From a virus (taxonomy: Duplodnaviria; Heunggongvirae; Uroviricota; Caudoviricetes): a stretch of 12,244 nt of DNA. Shown one piece after another: positions 8,799 through 10,965 of this stretch. Made by a program: the position numbers and the translations under genes. The notes beneath the pieces are model-generated. The model had not been told where the DNA came from and searched no databases. It saw only the letters and a program-made list of their open reading frames with translations. Every line of letters starts with the position of its first letter. The first letter of the stretch is position 1. The stretch lies in the IMG/VR virus record IMGVR_UViG_3300027312_000135. One strand, written 5' to 3'.

Positions 8799-8837
8799 AC
8801 ATGTAGTACACTTATAGCTCTATAAAATTCAAAAAAT

Positions 8838-8861
8838 ATTTCCCCTCAGCCGAGGGGAAAT
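8838..8861. terminator. Bidirectional intrinsic terminator between the convergent bet operon and the small-peptide operon
   Basis: Perfect 10 bp inverted repeat ATTTCCCCTC-AGCC-GAGGGGAAAT. On the minus strand it is followed directly by ATTTTTT; on the plus strand a T7 run lies 9 nt downstream. Confidence 0.6.
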
Positions 8862-8863
8862 GA

Positions 8864-9004
8864 TTAAGGTTTTTTTGGCGGTGGGGCTGGTTGCGTAACT
8901 TGTTTAGCTGGTTTATAACCCTCGTTTACTGGCTGTGATTTCGGTTGATAACCATAGTCATATGGTTGATATCCATCTTCTTTGAACCTTTTTTCATTGG
9001 CCAT
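8864..9004 (-). CDS. Small Pro/Lys/Tyr-rich peptide A (46 aa), paralogue 3 of 3, ends PPPKKP
   Basis: Not in the track. ATG at 9004..9002, TAA at 8866..8864. Translation MANEKRFKEDGYQPYDYGYQPKSQPVNEGYKPAKQVTQPAPPPKKP. Its SD is the weakest of the three. Confidence 0.5.
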   Translation of the reverse strand: MANEKRFKEDGYQPYDYGYQPKSQPVNEGYKPAKQVTQPAPPPKKP

Positions 9005-9033
9005 TTTTACACTCATCTTCAATTACTTAAATA

Positions 9034-9177
9034 TTATGGTTTTTTAGGGGGAGGTACGGGCTGTGTTACTTGTTTTGAAGGTTTGTAACCCTTTTCGACA
9101 GGCTTCTCTTTTGGCTGATACCCACGATCGGTATTATCACCGTTAAATTTAGAATACTTCTGGTTAAATAATTTCAT
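9034..9177 (-). CDS. Small Pro/Lys/Tyr-rich peptide B (47 aa), paralogue 2 of 3, ends PPPKKP
   Basis: Not in the track. ATG at 9177..9175 with GAGGTAGGAAACGGT upstream; TAA at 9036..9034. Translation MKLFNQKYSKFNGDNTDRGYQPKEKPVEKGYKPSKQVTQPVPPPKKP. Confidence 0.55.
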   Translation of the reverse strand: MKLFNQKYSKFNGDNTDRGYQPKEKPVEKGYKPSKQVTQPVPPPKKP

Positions 9178-9191
9178 ACCGTTTCCTACCT

Positions 9192-9335
9192 CTATGGCTT
9201 TTTTGGAGGAGGTGCAGGAGGGGTAACCTGTTTCGGAGGTATATAACCACCATTAACACCATTGCTACTCTGGTTTTTACTTTGAGCTCTAGGTTGATAA
9301 CCATCTTGAGCTATGCCTTTATTTTTTTGCATCAT
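9192..9335 (-). CDS. Small Pro/Lys/Tyr-rich peptide C (47 aa), paralogue 1 of 3, ends PPPKKP
   Basis: Not in the track. ATG at 9335..9333 (or 9332) with a GGAGAA SD; TAG at 9194..9192. Translation MMQKNKGIAQDGYQPRAQSKNQSSNGVNGGYIPPKQVTPPAPPPKKP. Confidence 0.55.
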   Translation of the reverse strand: MMQKNKGIAQDGYQPRAQSKNQSSNGVNGGYIPPKQVTPPAPPPKKP

Positions 9336-9355
9336 ACATTCTCCAATGGAAATAA

Positions 9356-9943
9356 CTACGTTTCATAAAATTCAATCTTTTCAATATCTTTAGAGAGAAT
9401 AAGCACGCCCTGAGTCTTATCTTTGACGCTATCAAAACCACCGTCGCTATTAATGTGCCAACTTTGCTCTAAATAGAGTTGCTCTGGTTCAGGAGCGCTG
9501 GAAGCAAAAGAGTCACTACCATAATACCCGCCTATAGTCTTTCCGTCTTTTAAAGTAACAACGACCCAAGCCGTTTTACGCAATCCAAAATAATAATCCC
9601 AAGATCTTCCTGTTGGGTGTGGTAATAAGTTCTTTATCCATGGCAAAACTCTGGCCTTAGAGAAAATAAGCGCCAATAGAATAGGGCTTATTATCAAAAC
9701 AATCATATAAAAACAAAAGTAAATGAACGGGTGAGAAAACTTAAAGCCCAGCCCTTCAAAATAATATATTGGAATAAACCAAATCGCGTGATTGATGCAA
9801 CTGTAAGATACAACTTCTACTATCGCTTTTGAAGTATCTATTTGTACTGTAGGATGAAAAACATTATATGCTTTCATGCTTAGAAAGCCAGGAACGACAA
9901 AAAGGATAAAAATAAATAACTTACTACTATTCCAGATATCCAT
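9356..9943 (-). CDS. Membrane protein (about 3 TM helices in the N-terminal half, soluble C-terminal domain), function unknown
   Basis: Track ORF. Hydrophobic segments KLFIFILFVVPGFL, AIWFIPIYYF and FIYFCFYMIVLIISPILLALIF, then a roughly 95 aa hydrophilic C-terminus. AT-rich codon usage unlike the flanking phage genes. First gene of an operon that continues into the three peptide genes. Confidence 0.7.
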   Translation of the reverse strand: MDIWNSSKLFIFILFVVPGFLSMKAYNVFHPTVQIDTSKAIVEVVSYSCINHAIWFIPIYYFEGLGFKFSHPFIYFCFYMIVLIISPILLALIFSKARVLPWIKNLLPHPTGRSWDYYFGLRKTAWVVVTLKDGKTIGGYYGSDSFASSAPEPEQLYLEQSWHINSDGGFDSVKDKTQGVLILSKDIEKIEFYET

Positions 9944-10120
9944 TAGAGTTTTCTTCGAGTGATTTTTCTTTAAAAGAGCAAAACTGCACCTTCATGTCAA
10001 TAATTTTTTAGATGATTTTAAAGTATTACTAGTTTTCTTGATGAACAACACATAGCAGAGAAATACATGATGATAAGGTATACGTGGGCATGCCCCAACG
10101 ATGTCAATTCCAAGGAGCTT

Positions 10121-10246
10121 ATGAACATGCCGGTAATAGTTACGAAGTGGAGATGCAGCAGCCGGAAGCGGCTAAAGTTTTACCGTGATGGGTCGATGCA
10201 GTTACCGGAGGGTTACGATCCGATTTATCAGAAAGAGGGGGATTGA
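10121..10246 (+). CDS. Hypothetical small protein (41 aa), coupled to the downstream 219 aa gene
   Basis: Not in the track. ATG at 10121 (alternative 10127) with an AAGGAG SD; TGA stop overlaps the next ATG (TGATG). Translation MNMPVIVTKWRCSSRKRLKFYRDGSMQLPEGYDPIYQKEGD. Confidence 0.4.
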   Translation: MNMPVIVTKWRCSSRKRLKFYRDGSMQLPEGYDPIYQKEGD

Positions 10247-10905
10247 TGTTCGAGCTATTTGATAAGAGATATTCCCATAGGATATCAGAAGCTCTTAAAG
10301 AGAAAGTTCGCACTGACATAGATGGGCCAGGATTCATTGCTCGGGGGATTCTTGAGGCTATTCGCTTACTAGAAGGTGAAAACGTAGCGCAGTCCACAAG
10401 AGCGATGCGACATAAGGAGCGAGAACTAAAAGGGGAACTAGAAGGTTTTTTTCATATTCACGTTGCAGAAGACAATTTTAGTAGATTAATGAATAATTTT
10501 GGTGGGAAGCCCTCTAAACCAATAAAAAACCCCAGACCAGATGAATTGATTGCTTATGCCACAAATCAAGTCTTAAAAGCATATGTTAAAAAATTTAGCA
10601 TCCCTTATAGTAGTGATGACACTCAACATTTGAGGGATGCCATAATTAACAGCAGCCATGCGAAGAAGATTGGCGCTGATAATATTTTTGATTCAATTCA
10701 GAAGCAAATACCTATGATGATAGACAAGGTATTTTTTTCAAACAATAAAGTTAGTGGCGATTGGTTATTATATAAAAAACACAGCGATGGTAAAAACTAT
10801 TACCTTGATTTCACAGTACATGTAGAATCAGAAGATACGCAGCGCCAAATTGAACTTCGAGCGTCTTTGAATAAATCTTTCCAAGAACTTATCAAACAAC
10901 ATTAA
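10246..10905 (+). CDS. Hypothetical soluble protein (219 aa), no recognisable domain
   Basis: Track ORF trimmed to the ATG at 10246, with a GAGGGGG SD 5-6 nt upstream. AT-rich codon usage. No TM segments or catalytic motif recognised by eye. Followed by an intrinsic terminator. Confidence 0.7.
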   Translation: MFELFDKRYSHRISEALKEKVRTDIDGPGFIARGILEAIRLLEGENVAQSTRAMRHKERELKGELEGFFHIHVAEDNFSRLMNNFGGKPSKPIKNPRPDELIAYATNQVLKAYVKKFSIPYSSDDTQHLRDAIINSSHAKKIGADNIFDSIQKQIPMMIDKVFFSNNKVSGDWLLYKKHSDGKNYYLDFTVHVESEDTQRQIELRASLNKSFQELIKQH

Positions 10906-10921
10906 TTCTTAATAACTTTGA

Positions 10922-10942
10922 CCTGCTCCGGCAGGTTTTTTT
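10922..10942 (+). terminator. Intrinsic terminator (CCTGC-TCCG-GCAGG followed by T7)
   Basis: Perfect 5-6 bp stem, 4 nt loop, TTTTTTT at 10936..10942, then the linker ACGCCTAAATT, which matches the linker after the terminator at 6051..6071. Confidence 0.55.
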
Positions 10943-10965
10943 ACGCCTAAATTTCGGAAATGACT

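Follow-up and report, generated by a model that had tools for sequence, protein, structure and literature searches.

A DUF6338 gene paired with proline-rich microprotein genes in an AT-rich island of a lambdoid prophage

The IMG/VR virus record IMGVR_UViG_3300027312_000135 provides a stretch of DNA of 12,244 nt (the window) taken from a lambdoid prophage and covering its immunity and early region. A 2.15-kb AT-rich accessory island (8799–10950) lies in it between the stop codon of recT (8798) and the next backbone gene (10960). What does this island encode, and what might it do for a lysogen? An earlier reading made from the letters alone (the sequence-only reading) had taken it for a lysogen-expressed moron, of the class that typically encodes superinfection exclusion, abortive infection or defence. 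The island proved to be real and its class rightly guessed, and its content is more specific than six unknowns. It is made of two cassettes, the first of which pairs a membrane protein of the DUF6338 family with a conserved family of small proline-rich proteins. We regard the anatomy of the island and the discovery of this gene pair as secure.

The DUF6338 gene and the microprotein genes that follow it

The first gene of the minus-strand unit (9356–9943) encodes a protein of 195 amino acids (aa). It matched Pfam family PF19865 (DUF6338) at E=1.3e-34 and 120.1 bits, against a cut-off of 26.5, with residues 5–194 aligned to positions 4–201 of the 205-position model. The family is large, with 2615 representatives at 50% identity. 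This match, and the RelE/ParE toxin fold predicted for a 219-aa product described below, replaced the previous statement that none of the six products belonged to a nameable family.

Three small open reading frames (ORFs) follow in tandem on the same strand. Microprotein 1 (9192–9335) starts 21 nt past the DUF6338 stop, has the ribosome-binding site (RBS) GGAG, and is 47 aa long (MMQKNKGIAQDGYQPRAQSKNQSSNGVNGGYIPPKQVTPPAPPPKKP). Microprotein 2 (9034–9177), with the RBS AGGTAGGA, is also 47 aa long (MKLFNQKYSKFNGDNTDRGYQPKEKPVEKGYKPSKQVTQPVPPPKKP). The third frame (8864–9022) is open from a TTG at 9022; its likely start is the ATG at 9004, giving 46 aa (MANEKRFKEDGYQPYDYGYQPKSQPVNEGYKPAKQVTQPAPPPKKP). 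The three are paralogues with the common ending KQVTxPxPPPKKP and two or three GYQP-type motifs each.

We fetched 131 DUF6338 loci, 73 from genomes and 54 from IMG/VR viral contigs. The genomes included Gamma- and Betaproteobacteria, Chloroflexota, Nitrospirota, Synergistota, Chlorobiota and others. An ORF counted as a microprotein if it was hydrophilic, 28–85 aa long, placed immediately behind DUF6338 in the same orientation, and contained one or more G-[YWHF]-x-P motifs as well as a C-terminal tail rich in proline. All three ORFs of the window are of this kind, and they form the first three rows of the family profile alignment.

For 128 loci, 200 nt or more of downstream sequence was available, and in 123 of these DUF6338 was followed by one or more microproteins on the same strand. 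There were 1–4 copies, 28–85 aa long (median 54), and the median gap was 4 nt; the pair ranged from Proteobacteria to Chloroflexota and Nitrospirota. Four of the five exceptions were inspected, and they turned out to be a miss of the filter, an internal stop, a partly retained peptide and a truncated DUF6338 gene; loci scored as missing a microprotein mostly have variant tails. Among the other ORFs in the same loci, the motif filter passed only 29 of 16489 (0.18%).

The consensus of the family reads M-S/T-D/E-x-K ... (D/N/E)GYQP ... (K/R)GYQP ... (G/N)GYQP ... P-x-P-PPKK(P/R), with the clade-specific tails PPGDE, PPKER, PPKGR and PPKNP. Proline makes up 18% of the residues, lysine 11% and glycine 10%, and hydrophobic residues are almost absent. 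The ratio of nonsynonymous to synonymous differences (pN/pS) was 0.19 over 41 equal-length pairs of 60–97% amino-acid identity, which indicated purifying selection. A profile search gave 343 database clusters. The best 120 of these were all 45–80 aa long, and had no Pfam domain and no name beyond 'hypothetical protein'.

Copy 3 of the window (…YGYQPKSQPVNEGYKP…) is orthologous to the second microprotein of related modules (L078, L087 and L090). At least two paralogue types therefore predate the divergence of these phages. The tandem copies are thus not all recent duplicates, and their number, from 1 to 4, differs between lineages.

A literature search on DUF6338 gave a sole match, a proteogenomics paper on Pseudomonas stutzeri (PMC10433244). 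In the DUF6338 operon of this organism (Pstu14405_RS12030), three novel proline-rich small proteins were found by mass spectrometry with 44–114 peptide-spectrum matches (Anal Chem 2023, PMC10433244). Two of them end in PPPPKK and PPPPPKKGG, and the authors judged them not to be conserved beyond P. stutzeri and assigned no function (PMC10433244). The layout is that of the window: a gene for about 194 aa of DUF6338, then three tandem proline-rich ORFs of 36–47 aa ending in PPPPKK(GG). The two peptide sequences that we retrieved differ in lacking GYQP repeats. Here, by contrast with the view of that paper, the pairing extends across phyla (123 of 128 loci) and into prophages. Searches of the literature on GYQP, on Sm-like defence proteins of prophages and on anti-phage proline-rich small proteins gave nothing relevant.

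These results bear on the suspicion that the island is decaying AT-rich filler, with small ORFs that arose by chance or are non-coding. Stop-free short frames are common in AT-rich DNA, and one of the six ORFs is in fact a decayed remnant (see below). Against it stand the conservation of the microprotein motifs across phyla, the low pN/pS and the detection by mass spectrometry, as well as the confident folds and conserved homologues of the DUF6338 and 219-aa proteins. The filler explanation is refuted for five of the six ORFs, and as an account of the island it is barely credible. Chance origin of the microproteins in particular is ruled out by the rate of pairing, the background of the filter and the pN/pS. 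We conclude that the pairing of DUF6338 with microproteins is real, translated in at least one organism, ancient and essentially undescribed.

The predicted DUF6338 fold and its contact with the microproteins

An AlphaFold model of the DUF6338 protein, built with 113 homologues, had a predicted local distance difference test score (pLDDT) of 86.4. It placed transmembrane (TM) helices at residues 8–29, 37–64 and 72–97, followed by a conserved linker, LPHPTGRxWDY, and a beta-rich domain at 114–194. In the model, this domain has the N-terminal helix and the strongly bent five-stranded antiparallel sheet of the Sm/LSm/Hfq fold, and could be superposed on solved Sm proteins. The protein is probably an inner-membrane protein of N-out/C-in topology. 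Three features would place the Sm-like domain in the cytoplasm: a Lys/Arg-rich stretch behind helix 3, partner proteins that are themselves cytoplasmic, and natural fusions (see below).

The top fold matches of the barrel were all RNA-binding Sm/LSm/Hfq proteins. This raised the alternative that DUF6338 is a membrane-anchored Hfq/LSm-like RNA binder that tethers or sequesters RNA, with the microproteins as competitors or cofactors. The sequence identity in these matches was only 9–20%. A PDB-wide profile search with the family alignment gave no match at E<=10 and no link to Sm or Hfq, and Pfam gave no LSM/Hfq match for the window protein. Sm-like barrels also serve as protein- or peptide-binding domains and as channel domains. 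Moreover, the obligate partner of DUF6338 is a peptide and not a conserved RNA element, and Rfam had no match anywhere in the window. The DUF6338 barrel further differs from Sm, LSm and Hfq proteins in being fused to three TM helices and in its presumed ligand, a proline-rich peptide. We consider an RNA-binding role improbable.

DUF6338 resembles MscS channels in outline, as these too combine three TM helices with a cytoplasmic beta domain behind them that is classed as Sm-like. A match to the MscS unit of TM3, beta domain and alpha-beta domain was not found, and there was no MscS channel in either list of DUF6338 fold matches.

Residues P18, G19, Y47, S48, N51, Y52, Y75, Y79 and P87 in the helices are invariant or nearly so. 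In the cytoplasmic domain, W115, F119, W126, F146 and W162 are invariant and Y157 is nearly so. This pattern appears to exceed the needs of a passive anchor. It seems reminiscent of aromatic cradles in which polyproline helices are bound. By inspection, the microprotein tail P-x-P-P-P-K fits the motif PxxPxK, a likeness to the PxxP ligands of SH3-like barrels.

In two proteins, P0279 and P0316, a microprotein is fused in frame to the C-terminus of DUF6338; the tail of P0279 reads ...EGYETKGYKP...GGNKP...KPPKK. These natural fusions are Rosetta-stone evidence, from sequence, that the two components would act together at the cytoplasmic C-terminus. Charge also hinted at a contact. Two loop residues of the Sm-like domain, DUF6338 positions 167 and 176, tend to be acidic where the microprotein has a basic tail and to be basic or neutral where its tail is acidic, with roughly seven changes of tail class on a neighbor-joining tree. 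This complementarity is confounded by phylogeny and is weakly suggestive.

One viral contig, L103 (IMG/VR UViG_2579778710_000001, about 6620–6790), has an in-frame stop (…KGH*PTS…) in its microprotein ORF beside an apparently intact DUF6338 gene. Either this is a sequencing error or loss of the microprotein is tolerated.

Might the microproteins instead be precursors of secreted or modified proline-rich peptides, with DUF6338 as exporter, maturation scaffold or immunity protein? They would then be like ribosomally synthesized and post-translationally modified peptides (RiPPs) or proline-rich antimicrobial peptides (PrAMPs). Arrays of precursor peptides typically consist of small ORFs in several tandem copies. 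The microproteins share with apidaecin, oncocin and Bac7 a short length and a richness in Pro, Tyr and basic residues, and their cationic composition resembles that of PrAMPs that target the ribosome. DUF6338 is also stated to occur in biosynthetic gene clusters (PMC10433244).

On the other hand, there is no leader/core split; conservation spans the whole peptide and is highest at the C-terminus. No conserved modifying enzyme, protease or ABC exporter lies beside the pair, and the Sm-like barrel has no catalytic signature. In the cell extracts of P. stutzeri, unmodified peptides were seen at up to 100% coverage. The fusions put the peptide at the cytoplasmic C-terminus. Unlike PrAMPs, the microproteins are made inside the bacterium without an export signal and are genetically tied to a membrane protein. 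The RiPP explanation was rejected as the main model for want of a leader/core split and of tailoring or export genes, and we hold a precursor role of any kind to be improbable.

Setting of the island and its second cassette

The GC content of the island is 0.375. In 133 segments of 2150 bp outside it, the mean was 0.531 (standard deviation 0.034, minimum 0.476), so that the deficit amounts to 4.5 standard deviations. Sliding GC stayed at 0.30–0.46 over 8700–10950, between 0.58–0.62 in the left flank and 0.50–0.59 in the right flank. GC at third codon positions is 0.34 in the DUF6338 gene, 0.23–0.33 in the three small ORFs and 0.31 in the 219-aa gene, compared with 0.66 in recT, 0.75 in exo and 0.70 in dam. 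The shifts in composition and codon usage that the sequence-only reading had described by eye were thus borne out. All six of its ORFs are present in the divergent arrangement it gave, in two units on either side of an AT-rich spacer, which here spans 123 bp (9944–10066).

The backbone of the window carries, on the minus strand, O/P-type replication genes, a ParB-like gene, cII and a Cro/YdaS-like gene (3961–4236). The plus strand carries a CI-type repressor with HTH_3 and Peptidase_S24 domains (4166–4909), a PDDEXK exonuclease, exo (DUF3799; 7078–7899), recT (7896–8798), dam (11387–11959) and an AlpA-type excisionase gene, xis. The plus strand is the early-left (PL) direction, since CI, exonuclease, RecT, Dam and Xis are all encoded on it, and the previous placement of the island within the early-left operon held. 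The gene then labeled bet encodes a RecT-family protein (PF03837).

The closest characterised backbone is that of Erwinia phage phiEt88, with 76% identity between the RecT proteins. Metagenome contigs that have an identical DUF6338 protein and the same flanking gene order run on into xis and int. The prophage is a phiEt88-like lambdoid one, and its host was probably Erwinia or Pantoea. Directly after recT, phiEt88 carries a different minus-strand gene, for the 110-aa gp39 (L147:5964–6296), and the island therefore occupies a variable accessory slot.

The island DNA had no megablast match among phages or 5,426 E. coli genomes, and megablast with the whole window gave short backbone matches in O and cII and nothing more. 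NCBIfam and PHROGs yielded nothing useful for the six products besides weak theta matches (below). The moron character holds: the base composition is foreign to the phage backbone, each cassette has a terminator on its own strand, and both the DUF6338 module and the 219-aa cassette recur in other prophages. What had been drawn as one island with two operons of unknowns is rather two unrelated, separately mobile cassettes.

The minus-strand operon ends in an intrinsic terminator at 8861–8838 (ATTTCCCCTCGGCTGAGGGGAAAT, then ATTTTTTG), 2 nt past the last microprotein stop. It has a 10-bp stem with 5 GC pairs (-15.9 kcal/mol) and a T-run. The plus-strand unit ends in another at 10920–10937 (GACCTGCTCCGGCAGGTT, then TTTTTTT), with a 7-bp stem (-9.8 kcal/mol) and a T7 run. 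The terminators previously seen at both edges are therefore genuine, and their supposed insulation of the island is not. On the plus strand the left hairpin lacks an adjacent T-run and so would not stop read-through from recT. Each hairpin ends one of the island's own units, and neither shields the island from phage transcription.

Read by eye, a promoter-like site for the minus-strand operon lies at 9972–10000 on the minus strand. It consists of a perfect TTGACA (10000–9995), a 17-nt spacer ending in TGc, and TCTTTT (9977–9972), with an A-rich stretch upstream. We take it as the putative promoter of the operon. For the plus-strand unit, nothing promoter-like was seen in the spacer by scan or by eye, and this unit may be transcribed by riding on the PL transcript.

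The second cassette, on the plus strand, begins with a 59-aa ORF (10067–10246), a decayed remnant of a gene for the theta subunit of DNA polymerase III (HolE/HOT-like). It scored 16.2 bits against PF06440, under the cut-off of 34.6, and matched phrog_1105 at E=3.4e-5. Its similarity to HolE theta and P1 HOT is kept in the C-terminal half; unlike them it is broken, with an internal frame shift and a replaced N-terminus. In tblastn and a three-frame comparison, its flanks aligned to the intact 82-aa theta of a Raoultella prophage (L134), and about 13 central codons were frame-shifted. An intact theta was rejected from this disruption and the low score.

The stop codon of the 59-aa ORF overlaps the start of the next gene (TGATG). 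This gene (10246–10905; the ORF starts at 10243/10246), with the RBS GAGGGGG, encodes the 219-aa protein. Fold search predicted a RelE/ParE toxin fold, of the RelE/YafQ/HigB kind, split by a helical insert of about 90 aa (about residues 78–165). Pfam, NCBIfam and PHROGs gave no match to the ParE_toxin, YafQ, HigB or Gp49 families. A weak hhalign alignment (E 0.05–0.07) laid the segment HKERELKGxLxGFxHIHVAED on YafQ YKDHPLQGSWKGYRDAHVEPD. It put H72, R59 and D76 at the catalytic positions H63, H50 and D67 of YafQ. The alignment ends at residue 78. Beyond the insert, GDWLIYKK...YYLD...H192 resembles PDWILIYK...TGTH87 of YafQ by eye, and the correspondence of H192 to H87 was likewise drawn by eye only. 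Across the family, H72, R59 and H192 do not vary and D76 is kept in most members. The protein differs from RelE/ParE toxins such as YafQ, HigB, YoeB and RelE in being twice the usual size, with the insert between strands, and in having no significant family match or recognisable antitoxin. The insert may be regulatory.

Homologues of the 219-aa protein formed only 14 clusters. All belong to enterobacterial prophages, where the gene occupies the nin region or adjoins dam or int. The homologues are preceded by an intact theta (L134 and L135, Raoultella), by a decayed one (the window, L136 and L137) or by none (L132). Theta as an antitoxin of the RelE-fold protein is unsupported, because it is absent upstream in L132 and decayed in the window. 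In L134 (7756–8651) and L135, the intact 82-aa theta overlaps the start of the RelE-fold gene by 4 nt. In the window (10067–10248), L136 and L137, the last 25–38 theta codons are still in frame and coupled to the toxin-fold gene.

Two features outside the island were also noted. GC content dips a second time, over a short span directly past the repressor gene (0.36 at 4951–5250), and this AT-rich span is followed by a 114-aa plus-strand ORF (5441–5785) with an arginine-rich stretch, RRYLKRGELIAKRRAEAAESKAR, and no Pfam match. The region 4950–5785 is probably PL with an N-like antiterminator. The first backbone gene past the island (10960–11178) encodes a 72-aa zinc-finger protein (CHYC…CSDEC) with a weak treble-clef Pfam match; between its recT and xis, phiEt88 likewise has a zinc-finger protein, annotated as DksA-like.

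Possible roles of the two cassettes

The DUF6338 module of the window lies antisense to the PL operon. It lies antisense in the nin region of Klebsiella lambdoid prophages, and near repB on the phage-plasmid pJN2-26. In E. coli prophages it is on the opposite strand, adjoining SNF2, xis and int, with a TIR-domain gene about 1 kb off; this allele was found in 2 of 5,426 complete E. coli genomes. The TIR gene (9615–10376 in L138–L142) is of the CAP12/PCTIR type, and the prophage also encodes its own family-A DNA polymerase.

Compared with the DNA on either side, the module was richer in AT in 114 of 120 loci (mean difference -9.4 points, p=1e-20). A tyrosine integrase was encoded no more than 6 kb away in 15 of the 73 genome loci and in 26 of the 54 viral ones. 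Terminator-like hairpins followed 28 of 103 modules, compared with 5 of 103 random controls. The module ran opposite to both its neighbors in 17 of 45 contexts in viruses and in 7 of 56 in genomes; these figures rest on crude ORF calling and are of qualitative use only. The upstream regions could not be aligned between modules, and thus the conserved mobile unit is the gene pair itself.

In the neighborhood of 48 genome loci, 270 ORFs within 4.5 kb were surveyed as raw counts, without a matched background. PADLOC recognised three Gabija pairs, two Dsr1, two defence-associated reverse transcriptases (DRT), SIR2-HerA, a cyclase and 2TM effector of the cyclic-oligonucleotide-based antiphage signalling system (CBASS), type I and IIG restriction-modification systems and the methylase DrmMI of the defence island system associated with restriction-modification (DISARM). 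Pfam added 9 integrases and 3 resolvases. On these counts, the neighborhood of DUF6338 has the signature of a passenger of defence islands or mobile elements.

We propose, tentatively and at just short of even confidence, that the island is a mosaic of two independently mobile cassettes, the first an exclusion or abortive-infection device and the second a toxin-type effector. Cassette 1 (about 8838–10000, minus strand) would be a self-contained unit transcribed against the PL operon. Being antisense, it would be free to fire in a lysogen, where PL is repressed, and would be opposed by lytic read-through from PL. DUF6338 may oligomerise in the membrane through its Sm-like domain, because Sm folds typically form rings. 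The microproteins would dock on the cytoplasmic domain through the proline-rich tail and the Tyr motifs, on a surface that would be aromatic-rich and charge-complementary. Once docked they would regulate or complete a membrane-acting device, and could activate it, inhibit it, or be its effectors. The tandem copies and strong RBSs suggest that the microproteins are needed in excess.

RexA and RexB of lambda are prophage-encoded and lysogen-expressed; they pair a polytopic inner-membrane protein with a cytoplasmic partner, and their relative dosage is important. Judged by its genes, cassette 1 is similar in outline, with a membrane protein and a cytoplasmic partner. There is no relationship of sequence or fold. 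RexB spans the membrane with four helices and lacks an Sm-like domain; RexA is a folded protein of 279 aa, whereas the microproteins of 47 aa are disordered. Moreover, rexAB is co-transcribed with cI, while the DUF6338 module is antisense in the recombination region. Cassette 1 would most likely act in the lysogen in superinfection exclusion or abortive infection, through a similarly dosage-sensitive membrane component and cytoplasmic partner. From the sequence evidence a defence or exclusion role is plausible, with a chance somewhat below even.

In cassette 2 (10067–10937, plus strand), the decayed theta remnant would still deliver ribosomes to the 219-aa gene. From its predicted fold, the product would most likely be a toxin-type RNase effector, self-regulated by the insert or neutralised by a partner.

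Could cassette 1 serve the element or the host rather than act against phages? It might be an addiction module, like a toxin-antitoxin system, or a membrane-homeostasis or stress module for element maintenance or host fitness, with the microproteins checking or tuning a membrane-perturbing DUF6338. The pairing is obligate, the stronger RBSs and 1–4 copies suggest an excess of microproteins over the membrane protein, the microproteins are abundant in normal growth of P. stutzeri, and many chromosomal loci have no phage context. Two observations argue against a classical labile antitoxin: the broken microprotein ORF beside an intact DUF6338 gene in L103, and the in-frame fusions, which sit poorly with a labile separate antitoxin. 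The module is also enriched beside defence systems (again without a matched background) and in prophage moron slots. We consider such a role rather unlikely, though less so than the RNA-binding and precursor-peptide explanations.

Several points count against an exclusion device and a toxin-type effector. PADLOC-DB v2.0.0, run on all six products as the sequence-only reading had proposed, gave no family for any of them at E<=1. A recognised defence system lay within 4.5 kb in only about a quarter of the genome loci, a figure without a matched background, and in roughly half of the non-viral loci the module runs in the same direction as its neighbors and lacks obvious marks of a mobile element. 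The abundance of the microproteins in ordinary growth of P. stutzeri fits housekeeping as well as constitutive defence, and the stop in L103 speaks against the microprotein as an essential antitoxin.

The proposed minus-strand promoter has its own difficulties. A consensus scan of the spacer found none on either strand, having skipped the site at 9972–10000 because its -10 agrees at 3 of 6 positions only, and the extended -10 is weak. Nor was a shared promoter found upstream of DUF6338 across modules, where a TTGAC-type pattern occurred in 2 of 99. For the 219-aa protein, the hhalign matches to YafQ (E 0.067) and YoeB (E 0.046) fell short of significance. No recognisable antitoxin family lies next to its gene, and the only coupled neighbor is the theta homologue.

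The proposal can be put more strongly. DUF6338 and its microproteins would then form a widespread unrecognised two-component system, a membrane-anchored Sm-like ring gated or armed by microproteins and spread by prophages and defence islands as a new kind of exclusion or abortive-infection device, and the 219-aa protein would be a new type of effector, a RelE/YafQ-fold RNase with a regulatory insert. We think this version less likely than not. With its insert, the 219-aa toxin-fold protein may be a self-contained sensor-effector.

For the DUF6338 family, the finding adds a concrete partner to a large family of this kind: a conserved microprotein family that has no Pfam entry and is called 'hypothetical protein' wherever it is named. 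Its main value is that this partner comes in a compact, clonable prophage cassette, a natural construct that fits four genes, together with a promoter-like site and a terminator, into 1.2 kb. If the role in defence or exclusion is true, the module would be an unusual one, in which a membrane-anchored Sm-like barrel works with disordered proteins of 45–60 aa, and searches for defence systems would be missing components shorter than the usual ORF-calling length.

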